Assembly: GCF_000026545.1 (NCBI RefSeq)
Contig: NC_011601.1
Source of the DNA: Escherichia coli O127:H6 str. E2348/69
GTDB taxonomy: Bacteria; Pseudomonadota; Gammaproteobacteria; Enterobacterales; Enterobacteriaceae
Strand: one strand, 5' to 3'
DNA length: 64,000 nucleotides
Shown: positions 3,118 to 64,000 of the stretch, one piece after another
Numbering within the stretch: position 1 is the first letter of the stretch
Layout: every line of letters starts with the position of its first letter
Notes under the pieces: model-generated
Seen by the model: the letters and a program-made list of their open reading frames with translations, nothing else
Told to the model about the DNA's origin: nothing
Database searches by the model: none
Made by a program: the position numbers and the translations under genes

Positions 3118-3196
3118 TGCCCACTGCTCCGGCGTGCCTGCGCCGGAGCGTTTATGCTAAACTGCGCGCCTGTTTTTTTGCCAGTGGTATATGCTC

Positions 3197-4636: not shown

Positions 4637-4753
4637 CAGCGCACAAAAAAAGCGCACTTTTTGACTGGCACATTCGACTGCCTCAACTAGGCTGAAAAAT
4701 GGTGCGATCGGACTGGTCGTACCACAACCGGCAGCTAAATGGAGAGCACGAAG

Positions 4754-4990
4754 ATGAAAACCAGTGTGCGCATAGGCGCTTTTGAAATCGACGATGGCGA
4801 ATTACACGGCGAATCGCCGGGTGATCGAACGTTAACCATTCCTTGTAAATCAGACCCCGATTTATGTATGCAACTGGATGCCTGGGATGCTGAAACCAGT
4901 ATCCCTGCCCTGCTAAATGGCGAACACTCTGTCCTTTACCGTACCCGTTACGATCAACAATCTGATGCCTGGATTATGCGTCTTGCCTGA
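4754..4990 (+). CDS. yebV: Small protein YebV (78 aa), function unknown
   Basis: ORF 4739..4990; start placed at the second ATG (MKTSVRIGAFEIDD...). Confidence 0.8.
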   Translation: MKTSVRIGAFEIDDGELHGESPGDRTLTIPCKSDPDLCMQLDAWDAETSIPALLNGEHSVLYRTRYDQQSDAWIMRLA

Positions 4991-5094
4991 TCCAAAAAGA
5001 ACCCGTCGGCATGGCGGGTTATTTGTCCGGGTTATTCCCCCGTTGTAAAATCTCTCCTAAACTTAACGGTACGGCACCACACTTCGGGGATGAA

Positions 5095-5286
5095 ATGTTC
5101 GCGCTGGTACTTTTTGTTTGCTACCTGGATGGCGGTTGTGAAGATATTGTTGTGGATGTCTACAACACGGAACAGCAGTGTCTTTATTCTATGAGCGATC
5201 AACGGATCCGCCATGGCGGTTGTTTTCCGATTGAGGATTTTATAGATGGTTTCTGGCGACCTGCACAGGAGTACGGTGATTTTTAA
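5095..5286 (+). CDS. yebW: Small protein YebW (63 aa), function unknown
   Basis: ORF 5011..5286; start at the internal ATG giving MFALVLFVCYLDGG...; ends 1 bp before the convergent pphA stop. Confidence 0.7.
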   Translation: MFALVLFVCYLDGGCEDIVVDVYNTEQQCLYSMSDQRIRHGGCFPIEDFIDGFWRPAQEYGDF

Positions 5287-5943
5287 TTATTGCAATTGCA
5301 CAAGAGTCAGTTCTCCCCCAAAGACAGCACCGGTATCAATATAATGCAGGTTGCCAATATCCACGCGATGGCGCAAAGGTGTATGACCAAACCAGAAATG
5401 ATCAGCACCTGCAATTCCCTGCCCTTTTTGGCGTTCACCTAATCGCGAGCGGCTCCACAAGACCTGATGCAAATCGACGTCCTTTTGCCATTCATAGACA
5501 TCATCTGGATAATCGGCATGAGCAATAACATGTTTGCCGGTGCGACTGTGTAATTCAAGAATAAAGGGCAAATGCTGACATTTTTCCAGCGCCGTTTTCG
5601 CTTGTTTCTGTTGATTATCTGCCAGCGCAATAAACCAGTCGCCGCCATTTATCAACCATAAAGACATCTGCCGGGATGCCAGCGCATCCATCGCCATCTG
5701 TTCATGATTGCCTCTTACCGCACGAACCCAATGTTGTTCCAGTAACTGCAGGCAACGTAAACTTTGCGGCCCACGATCGATAACGTCTCCCACTGAGATA
5801 AGTAAATCTCGCCACGGATCAAAACGACAATGCCATAATTTGCGGCGCAATTGCTCAAGACAACCGTGTATATCGCCTGAAAGCCAGATATGTCGCCATT
5901 GATGACCCGCAATTCTCTGATAAATGGGCGCAGGCTGTTTCAT
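5287..5943 (-). CDS. pphA: Serine/threonine protein phosphatase 1 (PrpA/PphA)
   Basis: 219-aa ORF with calcineurin-like phosphoesterase motifs (GDIHGC, GDVIDRG, GNHE). Confidence 0.9.
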   Translation of the reverse strand: MKQPAPIYQRIAGHQWRHIWLSGDIHGCLEQLRRKLWHCRFDPWRDLLISVGDVIDRGPQSLRCLQLLEQHWVRAVRGNHEQMAMDALASRQMSLWLINGGDWFIALADNQQKQAKTALEKCQHLPFILELHSRTGKHVIAHADYPDDVYEWQKDVDLHQVLWSRSRLGERQKGQGIAGADHFWFGHTPLRHRVDIGNLHYIDTGAVFGGELTLVQLQ

Positions 5944-6039
5944 CAATATTTTCCTCCCGCGCTAAAGATCACATAATCTTAACAAGAATGTTAAAAAACG
6001 CTGGACTCAGACAGTAGAGTGTGTGTTATGGTTGACTAT

Positions 6040-6308
6040 AAAGTCAGCGAAGGGAATGCTTCTGGCTTTTAACAGATAAAAAGAGACCGAACACGATTCC
6101 TGTATTCGGTCCAGGGAAATGGCTCTTGGGAGAGAGCCGTGCGCTAAAAGTTGGCATTAATGCAGGCTTAGTTGCCTTGCTCTTTAAGAATAGATGACGA
6201 CGCCAGGTTTTCCAGTTTGCGTGCAAAATGGTCAATAAAAAGCGTGGGGGTCATCAGCTTAAATGTTAAAAACCGCCCGTTCTGGTGAAAGAACTGAGGC
6301 GGTTTTTT
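6040..6308 (+). ncRNA. ryeA: RyeA (SraC) sRNA, antisense partner of SdsR; ends are approximate
   Basis: Known to be encoded opposite sdsR and fully overlapping it; 3' end placed at the plus-strand terminator at 6266..6309; 5' end not determinable from sequence alone. Confidence 0.35.
6078..6180 (-). ncRNA. sdsR: SdsR (RyeB) sRNA, RpoS-dependent
   Basis: Minus-strand sequence 6180->6078 reads GCAAGGCAACUAAGCCUGCAUUAAUGCC...GGUCUCUUUUU, matching the SdsR sequence as I recall it, including the 3' hairpin and U-tail. Confidence 0.8.
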
Positions 6309-6309
6309 A
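6266..6309. terminator. Bidirectional rho-independent terminator (yebY on minus strand, RyeA on plus strand)
   Basis: aaaaACCGCCcgttctggtgaaagaactgaGGCGGTttttt: GC stem flanked by A-run and T-run. Confidence 0.6.
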
Positions 6310-6337
6310 TTGGAAATCAAAAGGCTATTTTAGGTAA

Positions 6338-6679
6338 TTAACAGAGTTTTTCAGCTCGCTCTATAAACGGTGCCAGACTCATTTTTTCGCCGGGATTGTT
6401 AGGATCATCAATCTGAATCACCGAAATGAGTTGGGCTTTAGTCTTCCCACTGGCAACTTCCTTTTGTGCGATATCGTTTAAAGGATACTGCACGAGGGTA
6501 CTTGGGTTGATGACATACAAAGCATTACCTGGTCGGCAAGTCAGCATCACCTCTTCGCGATTAAACGCCCATTTGTCTTTACCCACTTCAAAACGGCTGA
6601 CGGTAATCACCTGCGGTGCCGCCAGCGCAGCTGCAGAACTGGTGAGTAACAGAAACGCCAGAATACTTTTTTTCATCAT
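6338..6679 (-). CDS. yebY: YebY (DUF2511) exported protein, 113 aa
   Basis: ORF with signal peptide ([20 protein letters not shown]); last gene of the yobA-yebZ-yebY cluster. Confidence 0.9.
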
Positions 6680-6691
6680 TTTCGTAATCCA

Positions 6692-7564
6692 TCAAAAAGG
6701 TTCGAGAGTCGCAAGCAGGCTGATGATCACCAGCACTACCGCACCTATCGCCCATTCGAGTTTAGTCATCCAGACAAACCAGGGAGCCGCACGATCTTCA
6801 TCCTGCCTCATGCGCGGTACAAGAACATAACGATTAGCCAGCGCGATGACCACCATAATCATCACCAGGATGGCTTTGAGCAATAAGAGTTGGCCCCAGT
6901 AAGTCGTAAGCGTGGGGGGAAATCCGGTAATCAACAATGCATTAAGCACGCCGCTTGCCAGTACGCCGATCACCGCAAAATGCCCGCACCAGGAAAAACG
7001 CATCAGCGCCTGAATAGCCTGGTGTCGCCAACGGCCTTTGATGAGTTGCATACACCAAAGCACCGGCAGTAATCCCCCAAACCACGCCGCCGCACAGATC
7101 AGGTGAATTGCGTGATTAGTCTGATGGATTTTCGCCGTTACCCCTTCATTCAGCGTCGCATGCCCGACTCCCGCCAGCAGAAAAAATTGCGCGGTAGTGA
7201 GCATAAACAGCAAACGTGGCATATTCCGCGGTTGCATAAGAGCAACGATCAACGTTACGAGGGCGAGAACAATTTGCCATAACCAGACGCCACCAAACTG
7301 CGTTTGCAAAACAGCCTGCCAAATATTTGGCGAAAATACATCTGTCCATCCCGTTCCCATCAACCCGCCCTGAACGGCGAGCATTGCAGTGGCACTGATC
7401 AAACTCCAGACGGCAGCGTGCTGTTGTAAACGCAGAAAACGCTTCGTCAGCAAGCGACGAATCGTTAAGGGTGCCAGCCAGGCACCGTACATTGCGAAGC
7501 CAAAGACCAGCATCAGCGAGGTGAAATGGATAAATTGCAGCGCGATCCAGGTAAACGCCAGCAT
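6692..7564 (-). CDS. yebZ: YebZ, CopD-family inner-membrane protein
   Basis: 290-aa polytopic membrane ORF immediately downstream of yobA. Confidence 0.9.
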   Translation of the reverse strand: MLAFTWIALQFIHFTSLMLVFGFAMYGAWLAPLTIRRLLTKRFLRLQQHAAVWSLISATAMLAVQGGLMGTGWTDVFSPNIWQAVLQTQFGGVWLWQIVLALVTLIVALMQPRNMPRLLFMLTTAQFFLLAGVGHATLNEGVTAKIHQTNHAIHLICAAAWFGGLLPVLWCMQLIKGRWRHQAIQALMRFSWCGHFAVIGVLASGVLNALLITGFPPTLTTYWGQLLLLKAILVMIMVVIALANRYVLVPRMRQDEDRAAPWFVWMTKLEWAIGAVVLVIISLLATLEPF

Positions 7565-7567
7565 GAT

Positions 7568-7942
7568 TTATTTCACGCTAAAGGTGTAGTGTCCTTTCGT
7601 TTTATGCCCATCCACCGAAACAACATGCCAGTCAACGGTGTAGGTTCCGGGTTTCAGCGAATCGGCCAGTGGAACAATCAGTTGCTTTTGGTCCTGCTCA
7701 TTCCGCTTCGCCGGTAATGTTTTAATATTTTCGTTTTTTGGCCCCGTGATTTTTGCACCACTGAATCCTGTTTCAACGCCTTCCGAGAAGTTTAAAGTAA
7801 TTGCCTGCGGGGCAGCTGTCACTTGCGCGTTTGCCGCAGGATACTGATGCGTTAAATGCGCATGTGCCCAGACGGAAGGTGTCACCAACGAAGTGGTCAG
7901 GATTGCCAGCGCGTAGCGAAGGGAGCGTGCAGTTGAAGTCAT
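7568..7942 (-). CDS. yobA: YobA, CopC-family periplasmic copper-binding protein
   Basis: 124-aa ORF with signal peptide and a CopC-like fold signature (HAHL...GTYTVDWHVVSVDGHKT). Confidence 0.9.
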   Translation of the reverse strand: MTSTARSLRYALAILTTSLVTPSVWAHAHLTHQYPAANAQVTAAPQAITLNFSEGVETGFSGAKITGPKNENIKTLPAKRNEQDQKQLIVPLADSLKPGTYTVDWHVVSVDGHKTKGHYTFSVK

Positions 7943-8080
7943 ATTATCTATTCCTTTTTGTAATAACTTTTTTACAGAGCATAACCTTGTCTAATGTCTG
8001 AGTCGAGGATCATCAATTCCGGCTTGCCATCCAGGCTCACTCTTAGTAACTTTTGCCCGCGAATGATGAGGAGATTAAGA

Positions 8081-8311
8081 ATGCTGAAGAATCTGGCTAA
8101 ACTGGATCAAACAGAAATGGATAAAGTGAATGTCGATTTGGCGGCGGCCGGGGTGGCATTTAAAGAACGCTACAATATGCCGGTGATCGCTGAAGCGGTT
8201 GAACGTGAACAGCCTGAACATTTGCGCAGCTGGTTTCGCGAGCGGCTTATCGCCCACCGTTTGGCTTCGGTCAACCTGTCACGTTTACCTTACGAGCCCA
8301 AACTTAAATAA
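8081..8311 (+). CDS. holE: DNA polymerase III theta subunit
   Basis: ORF 7994..8311; internal ATG at 8081 gives the 76-aa product [35 protein letters not shown]... Confidence 0.85.
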
Positions 8312-8412
8312 AACTTATACATAGTTACACTTTCTTACATAACGCCTGCTAAATTATGAGTATTTTCTAAACCGCACCCATAATTTGCAGTCATTTTGAA
8401 AAGGAAGTCATT

Positions 8413-9069
8413 ATGTCGTTCTGGAAAGTTGCAGCAGCGCAATATGAGCCCCGTAAAACCTCACTCACCGAACAGGTAGCTCATCATCTGGAGTTTGTGA
8501 GGGCCGCCGCCAGGCAACAATGTCAGCTGTTAGTTTTTCCATCGCTTTCTTTACTGGGGTGTGATTATTCGCGACGTGCCCTTCCTGCCCCACCCGATCT
8601 CTCGCTATTAGACCCGCTTTGTTATGCCGCAACGACCTGGCGAATGACCATCATTGCCGGCCTTCCCGTTGAATTTAACGATCGCTTTATTCGTGGAATT
8701 GCGGTGTTCGCACCGTGGCGAAAAACGCCAGGGATCTACCATCAGAGTTATGGTGCATGTCTGGGCCGTCGTTCCAGAACCATCACGGTGGTCGATGAAC
8801 AACCGCAAGGTATGGATATGGACCCGACCTGTTCACTGTTTACGACAGGGCAATGTCTGGGAGAACCCGACCTGCTGGCGTCGGCCCGTCGCTTACAATT
8901 TTTTTCACATCAGTACTCGATTGCTGTGCTGATGGCAAATGCCCGTGGTAACAGTGCACTATGGGATGAACATGGTCGTCTCATCGTTCGCGCCGATCGT
9001 GGTTCATTATTGTTAGTCGGTCAGCGTTCATCACAGGGTTGGCAAGGCGATATCATTCCATTACGCTAG
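8413..9069 (+). CDS. yobB: YobB, carbon-nitrogen hydrolase (nitrilase-superfamily) protein
   Basis: 218-aa ORF at the expected position upstream of exoX. Confidence 0.85.
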   Translation: MSFWKVAAAQYEPRKTSLTEQVAHHLEFVRAAARQQCQLLVFPSLSLLGCDYSRRALPAPPDLSLLDPLCYAATTWRMTIIAGLPVEFNDRFIRGIAVFAPWRKTPGIYHQSYGACLGRRSRTITVVDEQPQGMDMDPTCSLFTTGQCLGEPDLLASARRLQFFSHQYSIAVLMANARGNSALWDEHGRLIVRADRGSLLLVGQRSSQGWQGDIIPLR

Positions 9070-9092
9070 GCTTTTTCGGCCTGGAGCATGCC

Positions 9093-11839
<2,747 letters not shown>

Positions 11840-12018
11840 TTATAAGGGTGGCAAAACTCACCGGGGATGCAAGCGAAACAGGGTAGTCATTGCTTAGATG
11901 ATGACAGGTAATGGCGCGGATATCGAATGTTATGCAGACAGAGAAAATCAGCCTGCTCAAATGGCTGTGCGGTTCTGGATAGCCCGAAATCGTCAACTTC
12001 AGGCTATCCAGAGCGGAA

Positions 12019-12678
12019 TTATTCCGCCAAAGTGCGTTTTTGTTGTTCGAGATCGCGTTCAATGCCTTCACGAACGTCCTGGGGGATTTTCAGCGCGTCA
12101 CCCAGTGCATTCAGGTAACTGCGTTCCATAAAATGATCAATATCAATAGCCGCGCAGCTCAGGAAATAGATTTCCAGCGCCTCTTCTTCATTGCGGACCC
12201 CGGTAGCCAGGCGTTGTGGATCCAGCGGTTGTTCGATTGCCTGCTCAATGAGTACACGCCCTTGTTCTTCCACGCCGGCTTCACGCAATTGCAGGTCGAT
12301 TGCCGCACGTTCTTTTGCATCAATATGACCATCACTTTTAGCGGCAAAGACCAGCGCAAGGATCAAACGTTCCGTACGCTCATCCAGCGGCGTACTTTGC
12401 GCGCCAAACTGCGGTTCGTCCTGATGCGCCGCGCGAATTTTATCTTTGTATTTATTCCACAGCACCGTACCCGCTACCGCTCCGCCGCCAACCAGTAACG
12501 CGTTTGTGCCATATTTCGTAAGAAGTTTACGTGCTGATTTATTTGCGACCAGCAGCCCAGCCAGTCCGCCTAATGCGCCAGGCACTAAAAGTTTGCCCAA
12601 TCCCTGATCCGCAGACGAGGAGGTAGAAGAACGGCTTTGCCCAAGCAGGGATTGCAGTTGATTTAACCAGTTAGCCAT
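12019..12678 (-). CDS. yebE: YebE (DUF533) inner-membrane protein
   Basis: 219-aa ORF between ptrB and yebF. Confidence 0.85.
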
Positions 12679-13004
12679 ATTTGCTCCTCAATAACCATTT
12701 TTAGTGCCTGTAGCATAGCGGATGAGGATGTCAGAAAATGTATATCGAGACAAAAGATGCGCAAATAAGCGGGGCGGTAGGCCGTTATTCAAAGAAATTC
12801 GCGCCAGGTAAGGTGTTCACTGTATATAAGGTGATAAGGGTATTTTAGGTGAAAGTAATTTGACGTTTTGAGTGGCACTGTTTGACGCTGATTGCCCGAT
12901 GCGACGCTGTTGCGTCTTCTCAGGCCTACGATTGTGGTGCGTTGTGGGGCGGACAAGGCATTCGCGCCGCATCCGCCAACGGTCAATCGAATTATCAGAA
13001 GCCA

Positions 13005-13409
<405 letters not shown>

Positions 13410-13427
13410 TCAGGAGCGCAAGTTGCT

Positions 13428-13718
13428 TCAGGCCACGTGTGAGGCATCTTCCTCTTCGGATTCAGCACCGACGACCTGTGGGGACGGTAATTTGCCGGTT
13501 TTCAGAATGGTGCTCAGCACATCTTTTTGTTCTGCCAGCCATAGCGAAAGGGCTTCACGTTGCTCGTCTTCCATTTGCACTGGAGAATTTGTCAGCCAGG
13601 TGTCAAGCAGATCGGCCGTATCAAGCATCTTGTCATAAGCATCGGCTTCCTTTTTGCTGGTAAACGACATTTTCTCTTCGCCCTCACGAATGACTACGTA
13701 TTTAACTTCAACCGCCAT
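13428..13718 (-). CDS. yebG: DNA-damage-inducible protein YebG (SOS regulon)
   Basis: 96-aa ORF MAVEVKYVVIREGEEKMSF...; LexA box immediately upstream. Confidence 0.9.
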   Translation of the reverse strand: MAVEVKYVVIREGEEKMSFTSKKEADAYDKMLDTADLLDTWLTNSPVQMEDEQREALSLWLAEQKDVLSTILKTGKLPSPQVVGAESEEEDASHVA

Positions 13719-13735
13719 TTGCAGCCTCTCACAAT

Positions 13736-13755
13736 AACTGTGATTTTATACAGTA
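13736..13755. promoter_or_regulatory. LexA operator (SOS box) of yebG
   Basis: aaCTGTgattttatACAGta: CTGT-N8-ACAG palindrome 18 bp upstream of the yebG start. Confidence 0.8.
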
Positions 13756-13798
13756 TATTTCTTTTCAGTTGGGAAATCAACATCAGCAATAAAGACAC

Positions 13799-13814
13799 AC
13801 GCAAACGTTTTCGT
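13799..13814. promoter_or_regulatory. PurR operator upstream of purT
   Basis: ACGCAAACGTTTTCGT matches the PurR box consensus; lies about 40 bp upstream of the purT ATG. Confidence 0.8.
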
Positions 13815-13851
13815 TTATACTGCGCGCGGAATTAATCAGGGGATATTCGTT

Positions 13852-27187: not shown

Positions 27188-27315
27188 TTGTCGGATGCGG
27201 CGCGAGCGCCTTATCCCACCTACGGTTCGCTATCTCTTGTAGGCCTGATAAGACGCGAACAGCGTCGCATCAGGCACACTGCCAGTGTCGGATGCGGCTC
27301 GAGCGACCAATCCGA
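27188..27315. repeat. Cluster of three REP units (BIME-like) between znuB and ruvB
   Basis: GTCGGATGCGGCG...CGCCTTATCC and GTAGGCCTGATAAGACGCG...CATCAGGCA motifs in alternating orientation. Confidence 0.75.
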
Positions 27316-27316
27316 C

Positions 27317-28330
<1,014 letters not shown>

Positions 28331-28335
28331 TTACC

Positions 28336-28947
28336 TCATAACGCGGCGCGTAGGGCTTCGCGAATTAATGTTTCACTGCTGGCGTCAGGGCGAGCGATTT
28401 TGCTCACCATGCGGCTTGCTTCTTGTGGTTTATAGCCCAGCGCCACCAGCGCGGCAACCGCTTCCTGTTCAGCATCGTCGGTCGCCGGGCTGGCAGGTGA
28501 CGTGAGTACCAGGTCGGCAGCTGGCGTAAAGAGATCGCCATGCAAACCTTTAAATCGGTCTTTCATTTCAACAATCAAGCGTTCGGCGGTTTTTTTGCCA
28601 ATACCCGGCAGTTTCACCAGCGCCCCCACTTCTTCACGCTCAACGGCATTAACGAACTGCTGCGCTGACATTCCAGAGAGGATCGCCAGCGCCAACTTCG
28701 GGCCGACGCCGTTGGTTTTGATCAACTCTTTGAACAACGTGCGCTCTTGTTTATTGTTAAAACCGTACAGCAGTTGCGCGTCTTCACGCACCACAAAGTG
28801 GGTGAAAACGATCGCTTCCTGACCCGCTTCAGGGAGTTCATAAAAACAGGTCATCGGCATATGCACTTCATAGCCTACGCCGCCCACTTCAATTAACACC
28901 AGCGGGGGTTGTTTTTCAATGATGATGCCTCTGAGTCTGCCTATCAC
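28336..28947 (-). CDS. ruvA: Holliday junction DNA-binding protein RuvA
   Basis: 203-aa [18 protein letters not shown]... Confidence 0.95.
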
Positions 28948-28997
28948 ATGACGCTCCTGCGTAATGAATCAAAGATAATGCTGTATGATAAAAAAAT

Positions 28998-29017
28998 GCT
29001 GGATAGATATCCAGCGA
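28998..29017. promoter_or_regulatory. LexA operator (SOS box) of ruvAB
   Basis: gCTGGatagatatCCAGcg, a CTGG-N8-CCAG palindrome about 55 bp upstream of ruvA; the minus-strand reading is CGCTGGATATCTATCCAGCA. Confidence 0.8.
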
Positions 29018-29222
29018 AGGATGAAGAAAACTTGCAAGGCGTCCCGATGTTCTGAAAAATGACGCAGTATAATTTTTTCTACAGGTTATATTGGAAGCAA
29101 ATATTTAAATATTACATATTCAGTGAGGAAATGCGTAATAAAAATATACATTGCGCCTCCTGAAAAAAATAAATTTTTTATGCTATTACGTATATTCATA
29201 TCTATTTCAATGGAATGACAAC

Positions 29223-29825
29223 ATGAATATTAATTACCCTGCTGAATATGAAATTGGTGATATCGTCTTTACATGTATAGGTACTGCCTTATTTGGCCAA
29301 ATATCAGCTGCATCAAATTGCTGGAGTAATCACGTCGGTATCATTATAGGTCATAACGGTGAAGACTTCCTGGTTGCAGAAAGCCGGGTTCCCCTTTCAA
29401 CTATCACCACGCTATCTCGTTTTATTAAACGTTCTTCTAATCAACGCTATGCTATAAAGCGATTAGACGCCGGGCTTACAGAACAACAAAAACAACGAAT
29501 TGTTGAACAGGTTCCCTCCCAGCTACGCAAACTTTACCACACCGGTTTTAAATACGAATCTTCGCGCCAGTTCTGTTCAAAATTTGTTTTTGATATTTAT
29601 AAAGAGGCGCTATGTATTCCGATGGGTGAAATAGAGACGTTTGGAGAATTGTTAAATAGCAATCCGAATGCAAAACTCACTTTCTGGAAATTCTGGTTCT
29701 TAGGTTCTATTCCGTGGGAGCGTAAAACCGTCACACCAGCCAGTTTGTGGCATCATCCGGGTTTGGTGTTGATTCACGCGGTGGGAGTTGAAACGCCTCA
29801 GCCTGAACTGACCGAGGCGGTATAA
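29223..29825 (+). CDS. yebB: YebB, permuted papain-fold (YaeF/YiiX-like) protein of unknown function
   Basis: ORF 29151..29825; ATG at 29223 ([16 protein letters not shown]...) gives 200 aa; AT-rich gene sitting between ruvA and ruvC. Confidence 0.8.
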
Positions 29826-29826
29826 C

Positions 29827-30348
29827 TTAACGCAGTCGCCCTCTCGCCAGGTTCAGTCGCGATTCGCTCATTTGCATCGCATTCTGACTAACGTGGCAGT
29901 GGGTGATGGCAATCGCCAGCGCATCGGCGGCATCCGCCTGTGGATTAGCGGGCAGTTTCAGCAAGGTGCGGACCATATGCTGCACCTGGCTTTTTTCGGC
30001 ACTACCAATACCTACCACTGTTTGCTTTACCTGACGTGCCGCATATTCAAATACCGGCAATTCCTGATTCACCGCCGCCACAATCGCCACGCCGCGCGCC
30101 TGCCCCAGTTTCAGGGCTGAGTCAGCGTTCTTCGCCATAAAGACCTGTTCAATGGCGAAATAATCAGGCTGGAATTGGGTGATGATTTCCGTCACGCCCG
30201 CATAGATGAGCTTCAGACGAGACGGTAAATCATCCACTTTGGTGCGTATGCATCCGCTACCCAGGTAGGACAGTTGCCTGCCTACCTGGCGGATGACGCC
30301 ATAGCCGGTCACGCGCGAACCCGGGTCAATGCCGAGAATAATAGCCAT
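29827..30348 (-). CDS. ruvC: Holliday junction resolvase RuvC
   Basis: 173-aa RNase-H-fold ORF ([18 protein letters not shown]...). Confidence 0.95.
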
Positions 30349-30382
30349 CACGCGTCTCCGTTTTGCTGTTTAGCAGGCCTCA

Positions 30383-31123
30383 TCAGAGAGTCGCTGCAAC
30401 CTCATCAGAGATTTCACCGTTATGGTAAACTTCCTGCACGTCGTCGCAATCTTCCAGCATATCGATCAGACGCATCAGTTTCGGTGCGGTTTCTGCATCC
30501 ATATCAGCTTTGGTGGACGGGATCATGGAAACTTCCGCGCTGTCTGCTTTCAGACCTGCCGCTTCCAGAGCGTCGCGTACTTTGCCCATTTCTTCCCATG
30601 CAGTGTAGACATCAATAGCGCCGTCATCATAGGTCACAACGTCTTCAGCACCGGCTTCCAGGGCTGCTTCCATGATGGTGTCTTCATCGCCTTTCTCGAA
30701 GGAGATCACGCCTTTTTTGCTGAACAGATAAGCTACGGAACCATCAGTACCGAGGTTACCGCCACATTTGCTGAATGCATGACGCACTTCAGCAACGGTA
30801 CGGTTGCGGTTGTCAGACAGACATTCAATCATGATTGCCGTGCCGCCAGGACCGTAACCTTCGTAGATGATGGTTTCCATGTTTGCATCATCATCACCGC
30901 CCACACCTCGTGCAATTGCGCGGTTCAGAGTGTCACGGGTCATGTTGTTAGACAGTGCTTTATCAATTGCTGCACGCAGACGCGGGTTAGCGTCCGGATC
31001 ACCACCGCCCAGCTTAGCCGCGGTTACCAGCTCACGAATGATTTTAGTGAAGATTTTACCGCGCTTAGCATCCTGCGCAGCTTTACGATGTCTGGTGTTG
31101 GCCCATTTACTATGACCTGCCAT
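30383..31123 (-). CDS. yebC: YebC/PmpR, TACO1-family regulatory protein
   Basis: 246-aa [26 protein letters not shown]... Confidence 0.9.
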
Positions 31124-31151
31124 AAAAATATCTCCAGATAGCCCTGCCTGT

Positions 31152-31595
31152 TCAGGCAGCGTTAATTACAAACTGTTCAATCGCCTGCCGGTTGCTCCAG
31201 GACTTAGTGAGCGCCGCCGCCGCAGACGCATCAAGCCACTTGTAAGCCAGATGTTCAGTAAAAACGATCTGGCGCTCGTGTGGGAGCGCAAGACAGAACC
31301 ATGATTCCGTATTACGCGTCACGCCCGGCGCATAGCGATGACGTAAATGTGAAAAAATTTCAAACTCTACCGTGCGCTGACAGTCAATTAAGGTCAGTTG
31401 TTCAGCGACAACATCAATGGTGACCTCTTCCTTTACTTCACGCATGGCAGCTTGCGGCGCGGTTTCACCCTCTTCCACGCTGCCGGTCACCGACTGCCAG
31501 AAATCGGGATCGTCACGCCGCTGCAACATCAGCACCCGTTTCGTATCTTGTGCGTAGATGACCACTAAGATCGAAACGGGACGCTTATAAGCCAT
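31152..31595 (-). CDS. nudB: Dihydroneopterin triphosphate diphosphatase (Nudix hydrolase)
   Basis: 147-aa ORF with Nudix box ([21 protein letters not shown]); ATG 1 bp from the aspS stop. The exact N-terminus is uncertain. Confidence 0.85.
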
Positions 31596-31596
31596 A

Positions 31597-33369
31597 TCAG
31601 TTATTCTCAGCCTTCTTCACAACCTGAATGCTCAGCTCAGCCAGTGCAGTCGGGTTAGCAAAGCTCGGTGCTTCAGTCATCAGACACGCCGCCGCCGTGG
31701 TTTTCGGGAAGGCGATAACGTCACGGATATTGTCGGTGCCGGTCAGCAGCATCGTCAGACGGTCAAGACCGAATGCCAGACCTGCGTGCGGCGGAGTACC
31801 GTATTTCAGGGCGTCGAGCAGGAAGCCGAATTTCTCGCGCTGTTCCTCTTCGTTGATACCCAGAATACCAAACACCGTCTGCTGCATATCACCATTATGG
31901 ATACGCACAGAACCACCGCCCACTTCGTAACCATTGATTACCATATCGTAAGCGTTCGCCACCGCATTTTCCGGTGCAGCTTTCAGTTCTGCTGCCGTCA
32001 TGTCTTTCGGTGAGGTGAACGGATGGTGCATTGCCGTCAGGCCGCCTTCACCGTCGTCTTCAAACATCGGGAAGTCGATAACCCACAGCGGTGCCCATTT
32101 GCTTTCGTCGGTCAGACCAAGGTCTTTACCCACTTTCAGGCGCAGTGCCCCCATCGCGTCGGCAACAATTTTCTTGTTGTCGGCACCGAAGAAAATCATA
32201 TCGCCATCTTGCGCGCCAGTACGCTCCAGGATGGCTTCAATGATTTCTGCATTGAGGAACTTCGCTACCGGGCTGTTGATACCTTCCAGACCTTTCGCGC
32301 GTTCGTTAACTTTGATGTAAGCCAGACCTTTCGCGCCGTAGATTTTAACGAAGTTCCCGTATTCGTCGATCTGCTTACGGGTCAACGATGCGCCGCCCGG
32401 AACACGCAGAGCGGCAACACGGCCTTTCGGATCGTTCGCCGGACCTGCAAATACTGCAAACTCAACAGATTTCAGCAGATCGGCAACGTCGGTCAGTTCC
32501 ATCGGGTTACGCAGATCCGGTTTATCAGAACCATAACGGCGTTCTGCTTCTGCAAAGGTCATTACCGGGAAATCGCCCAGATCCACGCCCTTCACTTCCA
32601 GCCACAGATGACGCACCAGCGCTTCCATCACTTCACGCACTTGCGGCGCGGTCATGAAAGAAGTTTCCACATCGATCTGAGTAAATTCAGGCTGACGGTC
32701 AGCACGCAGGTCTTCGTCACGGAAGCATTTAACGATCTGATAGTAGCGGTCAAAGCCGGACATCATCAGTAGCTGTTTGAACAACTGCGGGGATTGCGGC
32801 AGCGCGTAGAATTTACCTTTGTGCACACGAGAAGGCACCAGGTAGTCACGCGCGCCTTCCGGCGTGGCTTTGGTCAGCATCGGAGTTTCGATGTCGAGGA
32901 AGCCGTGGTCATCCATAAAACGGCGCACCAGGCTGGTGATTTTAGCGCGGGTTTTCAGGCGCTGAGCCATTTCCGGGCGACGCAGGTCGAGGTAGCGGTA
33001 TTTCAGACGCGCTTCTTCGGTGTTGACGTGGTTAGAGTCAAGCGGCAGAACATCTGCACGATTGATGATAGTCAGCGAGGACGCCAGTACTTCGATTTCG
33101 CCAGTCGCCATATCGCGGTTAATATTTTTTTCGTCACGCGCACGTACGGTGCCCGTGACCTGAATGCAGAACTCATTACGCAGTTCAGAGGCCAGCTTTA
33201 ACGCGTCCGCACGATCCGGATCGAAAAATACCTGCACGATACCTTCGCGGTCGCGCATATCGATGAAGAGCAGGCTACCAAGATCACGACGACGGTTGAC
33301 CCAACCACACAGAGTCACCTGCTGCCCCACGTGGGACAAACGGAGCTGTCCACAATATTCTGTACGCAT
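31597..33369 (-). CDS. aspS: Aspartate--tRNA ligase
   Basis: 590-aa class II aminoacyl-tRNA synthetase ORF. Confidence 0.95.
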
Positions 33370-33678
33370 GAGATATCCCTTAACTTAGCTGCCGGCGGAT
33401 GCCCCCTGCTGCGCAGGTGACCAAGTCGCAGCGTTAGCTGTATGTCACAACTGAATGAAAAAAGGCGGCTATTATACTGGAAATTCTGCCGCACCGTAAG
33501 AGCCTGGCCCGCGCTGGAACGCCTCGTTACCACTTTATATCGGGCCTGAAATCAGACTCTACGCCAGTTTGCTATAAAGGTGTTGCCCGAACTCATAAAA
33601 ATTAACAAAATTTGTCGTTCCGCCATCGGCTAATCGCATTAAGGTGAGAGGCACGATTTTGTTTTATCAGGAGTCATC

Positions 33679-34245
33679 ATGCTTGAACTTAATGCTAAAA
33701 CCACCGCGCTGGTGGTGATTGATTTACAAGAAGGCATCTTGCCTTTTGCCGGAGGTCCACATACTGCCGATGAGGTGGTTAATCGCGCCGGGAAGCTGGC
33801 GGCGAAATTTCGCGCCAGCGGTCAGCCCGTGTTTCTGGTGCGCGTTGGCTGGTCTGCCGATTACGCCGAAGCATTAAAACAGCCGGTTGATGCCCCCTCC
33901 CCCGCAAAAGTGTTGCCCGAAAACTGGTGGCAACATCCTGCTGCATTAGGTGCAACCGACAGCGATATCGAAATCATCAAACGTCAATGGGGTGCGTTTT
34001 ACGGTACGGATCTGGAGTTGCAATTACGCCGCCGGGGTATCGATACAATAGTGTTATGTGGGATCTCGACCAATATCGGTGTTGAATCCACCGCGCGCAA
34101 TGCCTGGGAACTCGGTTTTAATCTGGTGATTGCCGAAGATGCCTGTAGCGCCGCCAGCGCCGAGCAGCACAATAACAGCATTAATCATATCTACCCGCGC
34201 ATCGCCCGTGTGCGTAGCGTTGAAGAGATCCTCAACGCGTTATGA
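33679..34245 (+). CDS. yecD: YecD, isochorismatase-family hydrolase
   Basis: 188-aa ORF. Confidence 0.9.
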
Positions 34246-35060
34246 TTTACATCGGTTTGCCACAATGGTCGCATCCTAAATGGGTGCGGTTGGGGATCAC
34301 CAGCCTTGAAGAGTATGCCCGCCACTTTAACTGTGTGGAGGGTAACACCACGCTTTATGCCCTGCCGAAACCCGAGGTTGTCCTGCGCTGGCGTGAGCAG
34401 ACCACAGATGACTTCCGCTTCTGTTTTAAGTTTCCGGCGACCATTTCGCATCAGGCAGCATTACGGCATTGCGATGATTTAGTGACTGAATTTTTGACCC
34501 GCATATCACCGTTGGCTCCGCGCATTGGACAATACTGGCTGCAACTGCCTGCCACATTCGGCCCACGGGAGCTGCCTGCGCTTTGGCATTTTCTCGATTC
34601 TCTTCCCGGCGAATTTAATTATGGTGTGGAAGTCCGCCATCCACAGTTTTTCGCCAAAGGGGAAGAGGAACAAACGCTTAATCGCGGTTTACATCAGCGC
34701 GGCGTTAATCGGGTGATTTTAGACAGCCGCCCGGTTCATGTAGCACGTCCACACAGTGAAGCAATTCGCGACGCTCAACGAAAAAAACCTAAAGTTCCGG
34801 TACATGCTGTACTGACGGCGAAAAATCCACTGATCCGTTTTATCGGTAGTGATGATATGACGCAAAACCGGGAATTATTTCAGGTCTGGTTACAAAAATT
34901 AGCACAGTGGCATCAGACCACTACGCCTTATCTTTTTTTACATACGCCAGATATTGCCCAGGCCCCGGAACTGGTACATACCCTGTGGGAAGACTTACGT
35001 AAAACGCTTCCAGAGATCGGAGCAGTTCCGGCTATTCCACAGCAATCTTCTCTTTTCTGA
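34242..35060 (+). CDS. yecE: YecE (DUF72) protein
   Basis: 272-aa ORF overlapping the yecD stop by 4 bp. Confidence 0.9.
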
Positions 35061-35112
35061 ATTTGCCACCTATCATAGACAGGTGCCATCGGCCATTTTA
35101 AAGGGAGTTTGT

Positions 35113-37260
<2,148 letters not shown>

Positions 37261-37275
37261 AGGTCTGGTAATACT

Positions 37276-37364
37276 GCCGGATGCGGCGTGAACGCCTTAT
37301 CCGGCCTACAAAGTCATGCTAATTCAATATATTGCAGGAACTATGTAGGCCTGATAAGCATAGC
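37276..37364. repeat. REP units followed by the cmoB terminator
   Basis: GCCGGATGCGGCGTGAACGCCTTATCCGGCCTACA and GTAGGCCTGATAAGCATAGCGCATCAGGCA; stem-loop GCGCCCGtttCCGGGCGCttttt follows at about 37397..37420. Confidence 0.7.
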
Positions 37365-37424
37365 GCATCAGGCAGTTTTGCGTTTGCATAACCTCAGCGC
37401 CCGTTTCCGGGCGCTTTTTACGTC

Positions 37425-39854
37425 TTATGCCTGAATAGCTGGCTGATCAAACGCCGTTAACTTCGGCGCATTGCCCGTATATTTTTCGATATACACCAGC
37501 GCAGAGTTACCGGCACAGGCATTCGCCAACTGCGAGCTGGGGATATCCGCCGTTAACACGTTCGCACTACCATTTTTACACAAGCCATTTTCCAGATCTG
37601 GCCATGCACCTTCATGCACGCATACCACGCCTTTTTTGATCCCGTCAGTCACCACAGCGCCTGTCAGGATCTGACCGCGCTTGTTCCAGACACGCACCAG
37701 ATCGCCATTCGCAATACCAAAGCGAGCAGCATCTTCGGTGTGAATAGTGATTGGTTCACGATCGGCAACCGCATATTTTTTACGCAGTTCCGCATAGTTA
37801 AGCTGACTGTGTAAACGGTGTGCCGGATGTGCGGTCAGAAGCTGCAACTGCTTCTCGTCGGCGGTACCCTTCCACTCATCAGGCGCAAGCCTGGTTGGGT
37901 GTGCCGGGCAATCCTTATAGCCAAATTTTTCCAGCGTTCTGGAGTAAATCTCAATTTTGCCGCTTGGCGTACCCAGCGCATTTTTCACCGGATCGGCGCG
38001 GAAATCACCATAACGAATGTACTGTTCGTTCTTCTCGCTGCGGCGCATTTCGATCAGTTTATTTTGCTGCCAGAAGGCATTAAACATCGGCATAGTCACG
38101 CGTTGCGCACGGGCACCTTTCTGAGCGGCATCATAGAAAAATTTCAGCCACGCCATTTCATCTTTACCTTCGGTATAGATCTCTTTTCCGCCAGGTTTGA
38201 GTAATTCAGCAAGATCGGCAAACACGTCAAAATCGTTGCGCGCTTCAAATTGCGCAGCGACAGCCTGCTTCATCGGCACAATATGCTGGTTGCTGTAATC
38301 ACCGGTCATCGTCAGGTCATTGCGCTCAAACGATGTGGTGATCGGTAATACGATATCTGCGTGTTTGGCTGCTGCGGTCCAGTAGCATTCAGAAACGACG
38401 ATCATCTCCGGTTTCTGCCTGGCTTTAATCAAACGATTAGTATCCTGGTGATGGGTAAAGTTACCGCCACCCGCCCACCAGATCATTTTGATATTCGGAT
38501 ACGTTTGTTCTTTACCGTTATGCTGATATTTGCCGCCAGGATTTTCCAGCGCATCGACGATACGGGCAACAGGAATCGCCGTCATTCCGCCATCATCAGC
38601 GGCCTCGCTGGCCTGTCCGGCAATCGCCGCAGACATTTCTGGTAGCACGCCGCCAACACGCGTCGGGTTGCCACCGTTGGAGTAATGATAAGAGAAACCA
38701 AACCCGCCGCCCGGTGTACCAATCTGCCCTAACATCGCCGCCAGCGTCACCAGCATCCAGTGTTTCTGTTCACCGTATTGCTGGCGTTGGATCCCCCAAC
38801 CAGCCATCAGCATCGTGCGATTCGCCGCCATCAGTTCTGCAAGTTTGACAATCTGCGCTTCCGGTACGCCAGTAATTTCCGCCGCCCAGGCCGCGCTCTT
38901 CGGCGTATTATCGCTCTTACCTGTCAGATACTCTTCAAACTGCGGATACCCGGTAGTGTATTTTTCAAGGAACACTTTATCGTGTTTGCCTTGTGTCATC
39001 AGGGTATGCGCAATCCCTAACATCAGTGCCACGTCGGTGCCCATATTTGGTGCGATCCAGGTGGCATTATCGCCAAAGAATTCGATGGTTTCGGAGCGGA
39101 TAGGATCAATGGCAATCACTGGTTTGCCAGATTTTTTCAGCTGATGGAAGTATTCCAGCCCTTGCTCATCGGTACTGCTCCAGGCAATTTTGAGCGTGTT
39201 CAGCGGGTTCATCCCCCACAGCACCACAACCTGGCTGTTTTCCAGAATAAGCGGCCAGGAGGTCTGCTGTTCATACACCTCTACAGAACCGACCACATGC
39301 GGCATGATCACCTGTGCCGCTCCGGTTGAATAATCGCCGCTATGCCCGGAATAACCGCCCGCCAGGTTCATATAACGTTGCAGTAGGGTTTGCGCTTTAT
39401 GCAACACGCCAGAAGAACGCCAGCCGTAAGATCCGGCAAAAATGGCCGATGGTCCGTTAGCTTTACGAATACGATCGTGTTGTTCATGAATCAGTTTTAA
39501 TGCTTGTTCCCAGCTCACCTGTACATAGGTATCTTCGCCACGACCTTTCGCCGGTTGCAGTGGATTATCGAGATAGCTTTTTCTCACCATCGGATGCTGA
39601 ATACGCGCCGTGGTGTGTACCTGATCCGCCGCCGTAGACTGTAAGGAGTTCGGTATGGTTTTCGCCAGCGCGCCTGTCGAAGAAACAATCTTGCCGTCCT
39701 TCACTTCTACGTTCATCGCTCCCCAACGTCCCGCGGTGAGGATTTTGCCGCCCTTTTCTTCTGCCCATGCGGGTAGCGGTGCAGCCGATGTCACCACCAG
39801 CGTCCCTGCCGCAATACCGCTATGTTTAATAAATTCACGTCTTGTTAATGTCAT
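37425..39854 (-). CDS. torZ: Trimethylamine-N-oxide reductase 2, molybdopterin subunit (TorZ/BisZ)
   Basis: ORF 37425..39872; start at internal ATG ([17 protein letters not shown], Tat signal) gives 809 aa. Confidence 0.95.
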
Positions 39855-44642: not shown

Positions 44643-44660
44643 TCGCGTTATACGGCAACA

Positions 44661-44690
44661 GCCGATGTCATTGCAGACATCGGCTTTTTT
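44661..44690 (+). terminator. Rho-independent terminator of argS
   Basis: GCCGATGTCattgcaGACATCGGCtttttt. Confidence 0.8.
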
Positions 44691-44694
44691 ATCA

Positions 44695-50605: not shown

Positions 50606-51466
50606 TTAATCCTTACTTAGCGCATACACCGTCTGACCACGCAGCGTGAAGCGGCGCTCAAGGTGGCTAAAGTTTTCAGAGTGACCCGCAAACAGCAATC
50701 CGTCGGGTTTAAGGAGCGAAACAAAGCGGCGCAAAATCTCCTGCTGGGTAGTTTGATCGAAGTAGATCATGACGTTACGACAGAAGATCGCATCAAACGG
50801 CCCCGGCACGGTGTACTGTTTCGCCAGCAAATTCAGCGGGGCAAAATCAACATAGTTCGCCAGCTCCTGACGCACGCGTACCAGCCCTTCATGCGGTCCC
50901 GTCCCTCGCATGAAATACCGTTGCAGTTGCTGCGGCGTCAGGTTTTTCAACTCTTCATGGCGATAAATACCGCTTCTGGCTTTTTCCAGCACTTCGGTGT
51001 CGATATCGCTGGCAAACACTTTCCATCGTCCGGGCGCGGTGCCCAATGTATCAGCCAGCGTCATCGCTATGCTGTACGGCTCTTCGCCGGTTGAAGCCGC
51101 CGCGCTCCATACGCGATACTCGCCAGAACGGCGACGTGCGTGATCCGCGAGCAGAGGAAAATGGTGTGCCTCACGGAAAAATGCCGTCAGATTCGTGGTC
51201 AGCGAATTGATAAACGCCTGCCACTCACCGCTGTGCTGATTAGATTCCAGCAAGTTCAGGTAATGACCGAAATCCGCCAGTCCCAGCGCACGCAAACGAC
51301 GAACCAGTCGGTTGTAAACCATGTCGCGTTTATGGTCAGCCAGAACGATCCCGGCTCGTTGATAGATCAATTGACTTATCCGCCGAAAATGCGCGTCGGA
51401 AAGCGCCAGGCGCTCGGTCATCTGTAACAATAAAGACGTTTGCCCACAGGGCAGAGATGAAGTCAT
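50606..51466 (-). CDS. cheR: Chemotaxis receptor methyltransferase CheR
   Basis: 286-aa ORF. Confidence 0.97.
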
Positions 51467-51484
51467 AGCGCCTTCTCAATCACT

Positions 51485-51711
51485 TCAGGATACCACTGGC
51501 GCAATTTGTAACTGCGCCGACTCATGTCGTGCTACTTCATGTTCTTCAAGGGTAAATACCGCCACACGCGACGAAAGATGGTCGGCCTGATTCAGTCGTT
51601 GCAAATCGTCGCGAAATGCCCAAAAGACATGCCGTTACTGCCAATCTGCAAGATCCCGCAGAGAATCAAAGTTAAAAACAGCGTGGTCGAAATTCGAATA
51701 CGATTAAACAT
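51485..51711 (-). pseudogene. tap: tap remnant: MCP 5' end (about 30 codons) joined to MCP 3' end (about 33 codons); central ~1.4 kb absent
   Basis: ATG at 51711 opens MFNRIRISTTLFLTLILCGILQIGSNGMSF, paralleling the Tar N-terminus in this window, and stops after 39 codons at 51592; a second frame runs ...AFRDDLQRLNQADHLSSRVAVFTLEEHEVARHESAQLQIAPVVS to a stop at 51485, 18 bp before cheR. Confidence 0.7.
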
Positions 51712-51756
51712 CAACGCTCCCCATCAGGCGGCAATGACCGCTTTAGTAAATACTCG

Positions 51757-53418
51757 TCAAAATGTTTCCCAGTTTGGATCTTGTTCAGCAATTCGCAGTC
51801 GTGGCTGTGCCGGTGGTTGCTCACTGGCAGGACGGGATGGTGTTTGCAGTTTATTGGTGAGTGGGCTGGCTGCCAGACGGAACGCGGAAACCGCTTGCGT
51901 TAAACGACTCGCCTGTTCTTCCAGCGCAGCTGCGGCGGCAGCTGATTCCTGCACCAGCGATGCGTTCTGTTGCGTGACGCGATCCATTTCCGAAACCGCC
52001 AATGCGACTTGATCGATGCCACGGCTCTGTTCATCCGATGCTGATGCAATCTCGCCCATAATGTCAGTCACGCGAGTGACAGCATTGACGATATTGTTCA
52101 TTGTTTCCCCAGCGCTTTCGACCAGCACCGAACCGGTATCAACGCGCGAGACGGAGTCTTCAATGAGGGCTTTGATCTCTTTTGCCGCCTGTGCACTGCG
52201 ACTGGCAAGATTACGCACTTCACCCGCCACCACGGCAAAACCACGGCCCTGTTCACCCGCTCGCGCGGCTTCAACAGCGGCATTCAGCGCGAGGATATTA
52301 GTCTGGAAGGCAATACCATCAATAACGCTGATAATGTCGGCAATTTTCTTCGAACTATCGGCGATCTCATGCATCGTTTTCACTACGCCATCCACCACTT
52401 TGCCGCCGTGCTGGGCGGTGTCGGAGGCACTTTGCGCCAGTTGCGAGGCCTGGCGGGCGTTATCGGCGTTTTGCTTCACTGTCGCGGTGAGCTGCTCCAT
52501 GCTGGCGGCAGTTTCTTCCAGCGCGGATGCCTGCTGTTCAGTACGGGAGGAAAGATCGGTGTTGCCCGCCGCAATTTCACGGGTACCGGCATAGATGGCA
52601 TCTGAACCTTCGCGCACATGAGTGACGGTGTCAGTCAAAGAGCGTTGCATATGTGAAACACTCTGCGCCAGGTCGCCCATTTCACTGCGCCCGTCAATGG
52701 TCAGGGTATTCGCCAGGTTACCATCGGCAATTTCGCGAATATGCGCAATAATTTTTGCCAGCGGTGTAAGCAACATACGGCGAATGCCGTACCACGCCAC
52801 CAGCAGAATCAATACCACCACCAGCGCGATAACCGCCAGTTGCCACTGGGCAAATCGGTAATCATCTGCGTTGTCAGTGACGATATCGCGATACAGTTTT
52901 TCACTGCTGAGGGCGTACTGAGCAAACGCTTCGCCCATTGCATTTTGCATTCCCTGGGTTGGCTGAGCGAAATAAGCTCCAGTATTGCCATAATCAAGAT
53001 AATCAATCAGTTCAGTTAACGCTGTGTGATAGTTTTTATATTTTTCATCAATATTACGACTGGTAGCGACCATTTCAGGTAACGGTGCCATGCTTTTGAA
53101 TTTTTTATAATGCGTCGCGGCCTGGGCCAATGTTTTCCTGGCGCTATCGAGCAATTCAACTTTGGCATTACTTTGCTGATTGGATGAATCCATCATCATC
53201 CGCACCGCTGAACGACTCAGGTTAATGCGCGTTTGCAGCATTAAATCCCATGTTGACGTCAGCTCGCCCTGCTGTTCCCGTAATTGATTGGAAACCACAA
53301 AGCTCTTCTGGCTATGGTGAAGGGAAGAAAAAAACAGACTGCCGGAAATAAGCTGTAACAGTGCGAATACCCCCAGCACCATTACCAACAGCGTGACTAC
53401 GCGGATACGGTTAATCAT
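51757..53418 (-). CDS. tar: Methyl-accepting chemotaxis protein II (aspartate/maltose receptor Tar)
   Basis: ORF 51757..53439; start at internal ATG ([21 protein letters not shown]) gives 553 aa; ends with the NWETF pentapeptide. Confidence 0.95.
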
Positions 53419-60138: not shown

Positions 60139-62889
<2,751 letters not shown>

Positions 62890-62908
62890 CTGTCTCTTGA
62901 TCAGATCT
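62890..62908. repeat. Terminal inverted repeat of an IS50-family element (matches the IS50 inside-end 19-mer)
   Basis: CTGTCTCTTGATCAGATCT begins exactly where the araH frame is interrupted; the transposase stop codon (TGA on the minus strand) lies inside it. Confidence 0.8.
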
Positions 62909-64000
62909 CCTGATCAAGAGACTTCATCACCAGGTAACCCTCAACCATATCCTGAAGTCTGAACCAGCCATCCCACATGACTACCCAACCGGGGCGACCG
63001 GTGCGTTTGCTGTCATGCCATCGCCCCAGTTTCGCCAGTTTCAGACAGGCCCATTTCAGTGTCGGCATCTGTGACGGAAGCGGTTTTCCTTCCAGCTTAA
63101 CCCACAGCAGTTTCCACTCTGTCGGCGTCAGTATTTTCTCACAGCTGTCATTTTGTGTTTCTTCACTGATACCGCCCTGCCGCAGGCCCAGCACCCGCAC
63201 CGCGATAAACGCCTTGATAACCACCATGCGCTCGAGGTTATCCCGGGTCTGCATTCGCAGCGATTCCACACATGTACCACCACTTTTCCACGCCTTGTGG
63301 TATTCCTCTATCAGCCAGCGTCGCTCGTAATGGCTGACGATACGTCGCGCATCGGCGGCACTCGCCACTTTTTCTGACGTCAGCAGATGCCAGCAGGCGC
63401 CGTCCTCTGCCTGCTCCCGGCAACAGACATACGTGAGCGGGAGCGCCTGGCCGCTGTTGTCGGGATTTTTTATGCTGACTTCGCTGTAACTGATGAACAT
63501 CCGGGCCTGGCGGGCTGCCCGCCCGCCTTTTTGCATCACATTCAGCGTGTGGCTTCCCGCGGTTGCCAGGACTTCCGGCAGTTCGAAGAGCTTGCCGGGT
63601 GCTTCTTCCAGCCGGCGATTCTGTGCTGCACGCACCACGAAGCGCTGCCCGTGGCTGACTTTATAATGCAGGTAATGCCAGATATCCGCTTCCCGGTCAC
63701 AGACAGTGATTACCCGTTTCTGTATCTCCCCCAGCCGTTCGGCCATGCGCTCCGAAGCCTGCTGCCAGCGGTAACTTTCTTTTTCTTCATAGGGACGTTC
63801 TTTTCGCTGGTGCTTAACACCGTAGGTGTCCGTGGCACGACTCCAGCGCTGCTGTTCGATAAGACCGACTGGCAGGGCGCTGTCGGGGGCGTACATCAGG
63901 ACAGAGTGAGCCAGCAGCCCGCGCGTCTTCGGGTTAGTGGTGGTATTCCCCAGGTCATCAGATGCCGTACTGTGACTGAAGTTAATGGTGGTGGTGTCTT
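62901..64000 (-). CDS. IS4-family DDE transposase (Tn5/IS50 Tnp homologue), C-terminal ~365 codons; N-terminus lies beyond the window
   Basis: Frame is open from the window edge (DTTTINFSHS...TRGLLAHSVLMYAPD...) to the stop at 62901; VITVCDREADIW and RWLIEEYHKAWKSG align with the D188 and Y-R-E-K catalytic motifs of Tn5 Tnp, and DSKRTGRPGW with its C-terminal region. Confidence 0.85.
   Translation of the reverse strand, partial: DTTTINFSHSTASDDLGNTTTNPKTRGLLAHSVLMYAPDSALPVGLIEQQRWSRATDTYGVKHQRKERPYEEKESYRWQQASERMAERLGEIQKRVITVCDREADIWHYLHYKVSHGQRFVVRAAQNRRLEEAPGKLFELPEVLATAGSHTLNVMQKGGRAARQARMFISYSEVSIKNPDNSGQALPLTYVCCREQAEDGACWHLLTSEKVASAADARRIVSHYERRWLIEEYHKAWKSGGTCVESLRMQTRDNLERMVVIKAFIAVRVLGLRQGGISEETQNDSCEKILTPTEWKLLWVKLEGKPLPSQMPTLKWACLKLAKLGRWHDSKRTGRPGWVVMWDGWFRLQDMVEGYLVMKSLDQEI

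Follow-up and report, generated by a model that had tools for sequence, protein, structure and literature searches.

We examined a window of 64,000 nucleotides from Escherichia coli O127:H6 strain E2348/69 (contig NC_011601.1), in which the minus strand carries, in this order, flhDC, motAB, cheAW, tar, a short spacer, cheRBYZ and flhBAE. The annotation was transferred from NZ_CP059840.2 (record position = 2146719 - window position), and the tar-tap-cheR locus of K-12 (BW25113), with a tap gene of 1602 nt, served as the reference for the definition of breakpoints. The tar gene ends with a TGA at 51757 and cheR begins with an ATG at 51466, which leaves 290 nt between them (51467..51756), exactly as the original prediction had placed them; by gene-order comparison, the remnant lodged in this interval occupies the position of tap in the K-12 arrangement tar-tap-cheRBYZ. 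The parts of the interval and its bordering genes are the following:

51757..53418, minus strand: tar (methyl-accepting chemotaxis protein II), intact, the upstream gene of the operon (NZ_CP059840.2 annotation and ORF list)
51712..51756, minus strand: native tar-tap intergenic spacer of 45 nt, with the tap ribosome-binding region GGGGAG (K-12 comparison)
51594..51711, minus strand: 5' piece of tap (K-12 nt 1-119 less one T), with the start codon and the first transmembrane segment (K-12 alignment)
51592..51711, minus strand: frameshifted 39-codon ORF running from the tap start codon, stop included (ORF list)
51671, minus strand: substitution specific to E2348/69 in codon 14 of the remnant, ATT to ACT, I14T (sequence comparison)
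51622..51625, minus strand: T4 run (T5 in intact tap), a frame-shifting 1-nt deletion (K-12 alignment)
51586..51593, minus strand: deletion junction, the sole remaining copy of the direct repeat GAATCAGG (K-12 comparison)
51485..51585, minus strand: 3' piece of tap (K-12 nt 1502-1602), comprising the stop and the 33 codons before it (99% identity to K-12)
51467..51484, minus strand: native tap-cheR spacer of 18 nt, with the cheR Shine-Dalgarno sequence GAGAAGG (K-12 comparison)
50606..51466, minus strand: cheR, intact, followed by cheB, cheY and cheZ (ORF list and annotation)

Alignment to the reference locus showed that the interval contains both ends of tap. Its first part, taken together with the end of tar (269 nt covering the tar end, the 45-nt spacer and the tap 5' end), is 98% identical to K-12, and its last part (194 nt covering the tap 3' end, the 18-nt spacer and the start of cheR) is 99% identical, with the two alignments sharing the overlap GAATCAGGCCGA; an identity of 98-99% to the ends of K-12 tap far exceeds what would be expected by chance. 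The native spacers themselves are hardly altered (one SNP in the 45-nt tar-tap spacer and no differences in the 18-nt tap-cheR spacer). Enclosed by them lies a tap remnant of 227 nt, in which K-12 tap nt 1-119 are fused to nt 1494-1602, so that the remnant of about 230 bp proposed in the original prediction is upheld almost to the nucleotide. Part of it (51560..51711) is already annotated by PGAP as a pseudogene (H4J01_RS10420, 'Tar ligand binding domain-containing protein; frameshifted; incomplete').

The ATG at 51711 (minus strand) opens an ORF of 39 codons that encodes MFNRIRISTTLFLTLILCGILQIGSNGMSFGHFATICND and is closed by a stop codon at 51594..51592. This ORF had been described as a paralogue of the Tar N-terminus, a description that holds and can be made more precise: since its first 30 residues are identical to K-12 Tap in 29 of 30 positions, as against 12 of 30 for Tar, the ORF derives from tap, and tar is merely its paralogue. 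A second frame, reading ...LNQADHLSSRVAVFTLEEHEVARHESAQLQIAPVVS, terminates at 51487..51485, 18 nt 5' of cheR, where its end had been predicted.

The anatomy of the lesion can be read from the intact gene. In K-12 tap the motif GAATCAGG is found at nt 120 and at nt 1494, in equal codon phase and 1374 nt apart, and hence the missing stretch amounts to exactly 1374 nt and is in frame (nt 120-1493, that is 458 codons, codons 41-498 of 533). A single copy of the motif is retained at the junction (51593..51586), and the direct repeat can be extended at the same 1374-nt spacing to GAATCAGGTCGAGCA and GAATCAGGCCGACCA, which match in 13 of 15 positions. There is no foreign insert, as K-12 minus the 1374 nt equals the remnant except for SNPs and the T-run. 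Both the size of the internal deletion (expected to be about 1.4 kb) and the involvement of a short motif shared by its ends were therefore rightly anticipated by the original prediction. By itself the deletion is in frame; the frame is broken by the loss of 1 nt at 51625..51622 (TTTT, compared with TTTTT in K-12), which substantiates the suspicion that a T had been lost near 51625 and had put the two halves out of frame. With T4, the reading frame is lost past codon 30 and translation ends after 39 codons, 125 nt before cheR, while restoring the T in silico yields a fusion ORF of 75 aa that finishes at the native tap stop. Nothing is left in the remnant of the periplasmic ligand-binding region, of HAMP or of the regions for methylation and kinase control.

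Two smaller observations concern the remnant itself. A TTG-initiated ORF of 39 aa (51485..51604, minus strand) lies in the native C-terminal frame of Tap, overlaps the end of the frameshifted ORF and terminates at the native tap stop, 18 nt short of cheR; if translated, it could maintain translational coupling to cheR. The I14T substitution of E2348/69 is non-synonymous and falls within the onetime first transmembrane segment, a change that would be consistent with an absence of constraint on the remnant.

Elsewhere in the window, the transposase gene of ISEc13 (IS4-like; 62901..64000, minus strand) extends past the window edge and adjoins a 3' fragment of araH (62505..62888, minus strand) that is annotated as a pseudogene without its N-terminus; the position of the insertion sequence beside this fragment means that the araFGH arabinose ABC transporter is disrupted in E2348/69. 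The same genes are intact in K-12 and Nissle. On the other side of the chemotaxis genes, the flhE-argS intergenic region (44643..44694) is structurally variable, with 52 nt in E2348/69 and Nissle, 164 nt in strain HH97 and, in K-12, 784 nt that contain yecT and yecV.

The distribution of the junction was assessed in 5426 complete E. coli genomes. The contiguous arrangement of tar, stub and cheR was recovered from 1058 of them at an identity of at least 99%, and tap was intact across the 5' breakpoint in another 4322. Carriers include UTI89, S88, IHE3034, NU14, APEC O1, ATCC 11775 and Nissle 1917, as well as IAI39 and CE10 (both of phylogroup F), and their sources are as diverse as humans, birds, dogs, a whale and wastewater. 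A match of 100% to the window was confined to three assemblies of E2348/69 / O127:H6. The frame-shifting T4 is present in about 1051 of the 1058 carriers and T5 in the other seven (counted with a 148-nt SNP-free T5 query), and among the complete genomes no full-length tap with T4 was found. Carriers of the B2 type differ from one another by 7-9 nucleotides per 2300 nt, versus 26-41 to non-B2 strains, and have common diagnostic sites on either side of the junction; they thus share one flanking haplotype.

We consider it close to certain that the interval holds a pseudogene of tap (methyl-accepting chemotaxis protein IV) that is of natural origin and common to the whole lineage, and no evidence contradicting this reading was encountered. 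The allele is the standard one across the lineage of the strain and is not peculiar to E2348/69.

We reason that an E. coli ancestor of the B2/F type would have lost the 1374 bp in a single step between the two copies of GAATCAGG, the likeliest route being replication slippage or some other homology-poor, RecA-independent deletion. Being in frame, such an event would have spared the two ends of tap: the start codon with the first transmembrane segment on one side, and the final 33 codons with the native stop on the other. A subsequent loss of one T from the T5 run, 33 nt upstream of the junction, would have left the 39-codon ORF, with the remaining frame destroyed by this homopolymer slip. As T4 is found only on deleted alleles, the surviving alleles fit an order in which the deletion came first and the frameshift followed; this succession is deduced from present-day alleles, and a full-length T4 intermediate may have existed and become extinct. 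Slippage between the direct repeats would thus have removed the receptor body. Longer exact repeats are available in tap and were not used (an 11-mer with copies 511 nt apart and a 10-mer with copies 474 nt apart), and hence repeat length alone fails to explain the choice of the GAATCAGG pair; our search of tap for inverted repeats by which the two copies might be juxtaposed returned none that was convincing. We speculate that an in-frame deletion that leaves its stop beside the cheR ribosome-binding site may be the least harmful large deletion that the gene can sustain.

Besides the old event fixed in the B2/F-type strains, we lean towards the view that the same repeat-mediated deletion has occurred sporadically in unrelated strains. 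The junction would in that case be a recurrent deletion hotspot, and the B2/F allele one of several independent slippage events, a possibility that we favour with some reserve and that complements the explanation as a lineage-wide pseudogene without replacing it. The seven carriers with T5 are central here: three have B2-type flanks (FCI5, FCI23 and FCI29) and four have K-12-like flanks (HH45, Z1323CEC0015, HH97 and EcN_Sk), the latter group being 26-41 differences per 2300 nt away from the B2 haplotype and without its states at the sites around the junction. HH45, Z1323CEC0015 and HH97 combine the identical junction and T5 with three distinct non-B2 flanking haplotypes, and genomes whose adjacent sequence (1441 nt covering the tar 3' end and the tap 5' end) is identical or nearly so have tap intact. 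For HH45 this sequence is matched at 100% in WEC and HCM-22C-2, for Z1323CEC0015 at 100% in at least 12 genomes, and for HH97 at 99.8% in its nearest relatives, all with an intact tap. The HH97 stub equals K-12 tap minus exactly 1374 nt, and the strain has its own, distinct flhE-argS spacer of 164 nt. Moreover, the B2-type states at -150, -33 (T4) and +304 are absent from all three strains, so that an import from B2 would need a tract shorter than about 450 nt plus a rare T5 donor. On the other hand, the credible cases number only three, they are known from assemblies alone (HH45, HH97 and Z1323CEC0015), two of them (HH45 and HH97) come from one sequencing project, and short-tract gene conversion is a formal alternative for these T5 strains. 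If the deletion did arise sporadically in unrelated strains, the junction would lend itself to use as a PCR marker and would be a case from nature of gene loss mediated by repeats.

EcN_Sk (NZ_CP172017.1, a Nissle-sized genome; locus 1..39300) was rejected as an independent deletion, for it looks like a chimeric or reference-guided assembly. At first sight it is the cleanest independent case, since all 3591 columns agree with K-12 from which 1374 nt have been taken out, and at the same time it has the structure of Nissle (the prophage at yecE, the 52-nt flhE-argS spacer, no yecT, and the tap deletion), with at most two gaps to Nissle per 1-kb window. Over about 39 kb it carries K-12 SNPs up to each indel, and from the prophage onward it is 100% identical to Nissle. 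The indels of Nissle at three sites, set among K-12 SNPs, point to a chimeric or reference-guided assembly rather than to a real recombinant.

FCI5 (locus 3015..3242), FCI23 and FCI29 are urine isolates from one Bogota study, in which T5 restores the 75-aa ORF. That they are survivors from before the frameshift is disfavoured, as the Tar, CheA and CheR proteins of FCI5 are those of Nissle, and Nissle has T4; for their T5 a secondary slippage of +1 is the more likely source, or else an error in sequencing the homopolymer.

We also weighed whether the stub might be active, with its transmembrane peptide of 39 aa (in T5 strains, the fusion of 75 aa) being made and functional in the manner of Tls, and judged this very improbable. 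In favour of it, the start codon of tap and the ribosome-binding region in front of it are undamaged and lie within a transcribed operon, and there is the precedent of the truncated trg of B2 strains, whose product is the functional regulator Tls (PMC12623472). Against this, the sequence past residue 30 is scrambled by the frameshift, the I14T of E2348/69 alters the transmembrane segment, and the coexistence of T4 and T5 forms means that there is no single conserved product; sequence variation is moreover too low for a test of selection. Equally faint, in our estimation, is the prospect that the stub peptide acts on receptor arrays or on gene regulation, in which case the recurrence of the identical in-frame, non-polar deletion would reflect selection and not just a repeat prone to slippage.

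We attach hardly any weight to the idea that the short tar-cheR spacer is ancestral, as in Salmonella, and that tap was gained later by other E. coli. Relatives with a tap-less tar-cheR arrangement do exist (S. enterica lacks Tap; PMC4742279), but in the E2348/69 spacer both ends of tap survive and are 98-99% identical to K-12, among them the start codon, the transmembrane segment and the 33 C-terminal codons with their stop; the missing 1374 nt encode a collinear receptor body that is in frame over both boundaries, and a remnant with a frameshift bespeaks decay and no precursor. An engineered knockout or an assembly artefact in the E2348/69 genome, considered solely because clean in-frame deletions typify laboratory constructs and with nothing to be said in its favour, is as good as discounted by the lack of any FRT, loxP or pKD priming-site sequence in the spacer or in the whole window, by the recovery of one and the same allele from three independent E2348/69 / O127:H6 assemblies, and by the presence of the junction in 1058 complete genomes of natural and clinical origin; the original prediction had likewise spoken against a scarred knockout.

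Returning to the natural pseudogene, its consequences for chemotaxis and for the operon can be outlined. As the body of the receptor is gone, no Tap receptor can be made, and E2348/69 would accordingly be expected to lack Tap-mediated dipeptide and pyrimidine taxis, a prediction that draws on the established function of Tap (PMC4742279). This enteropathogenic strain (EPEC), as other B2 strains, has a smaller set of chemoreceptors and should be blind to dipeptides and pyrimidines, and this reduced receptor set bears on niche adaptation. A scan of the spacer found neither terminator-like nor promoter-like sites, and with tar and cheRBYZ intact and nothing resembling a terminator between them, transcription from the tar promoter should reach the che genes. 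We would thus expect tar and cheRBYZ to be expressed from that promoter, and the translation of cheR to begin at a ribosome-binding site of its own.

With respect to known systems, the lesion resembles the spontaneous deletions between short direct repeats that were reportedly described in E. coli in lacI studies of the early 1980s, in that tap has an 8-nt exact repeat (13/15 when extended) at the breakpoints, one copy is kept and there is no insert. Longer exact repeats than the pair used are present in tap, and a search for palindromes around this pair found none. Salmonella enterica has cheR immediately behind tar and possesses no Tap receptor (PMC4742279); unlike that arrangement, the absence of Tap from E2348/69 is secondary, both ends of the gene having persisted. 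Tls likewise represents a chemoreceptor gene mutilated in the B2 lineage and long deemed a pseudogene (PMC12623472). Much of the cytoplasmic signalling domain is, however, preserved in Tls, for which a function has been demonstrated (PMC12623472), whereas the tap stub consists of a transmembrane segment and a 33-residue tail only, is frameshifted and gives no indication of function.

The nearest counterpart is the loss of Tap already published for uropathogenic (UPEC) and B2 strains, for which our sources are Lane et al. 2006 (J Bacteriol 188:5618) and Borziak et al. 2013 (J Bacteriol 195:3596), both through the papers that cite them. According to PMC3559539, which refers to Lane et al. 2006, CFT073 encodes tsr, tar and aer only, and UPEC have commonly lost both Trg and Tap. 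For B2 strains, PMC12623472 reports a loss of Tap along with a truncation of trg, and refers for this to Lane et al. 2006 and Borziak et al. 2013. Our literature search, in which the two original studies were represented by the papers citing them, returned no description of the junction. The wording of PMC12623472 that Tap is 'completely lost' in B2 is slightly loose, as a stub of 227 nt keeps both ends of the gene. Gene, lineage and consequence are the same in the published cases and in E2348/69, and since the allele of UTI89, Nissle 1917 and other B2 strains is exactly that of E2348/69 (with IAI39 and CE10 also among the carriers), there is essentially no difference between them. The loss of tap is in this sense already known, both from publications (through the papers citing them) and from RefSeq annotation, and constitutes an ordinary lineage marker, to which the present analysis adds the probable recurrence of the junction, the precise structure of the lesion (1374 nt lost in frame, a 13/15 repeat and a -1 in T5) and a census of its carriers (1058 of 5426 complete genomes, 1051 of them frameshifted).
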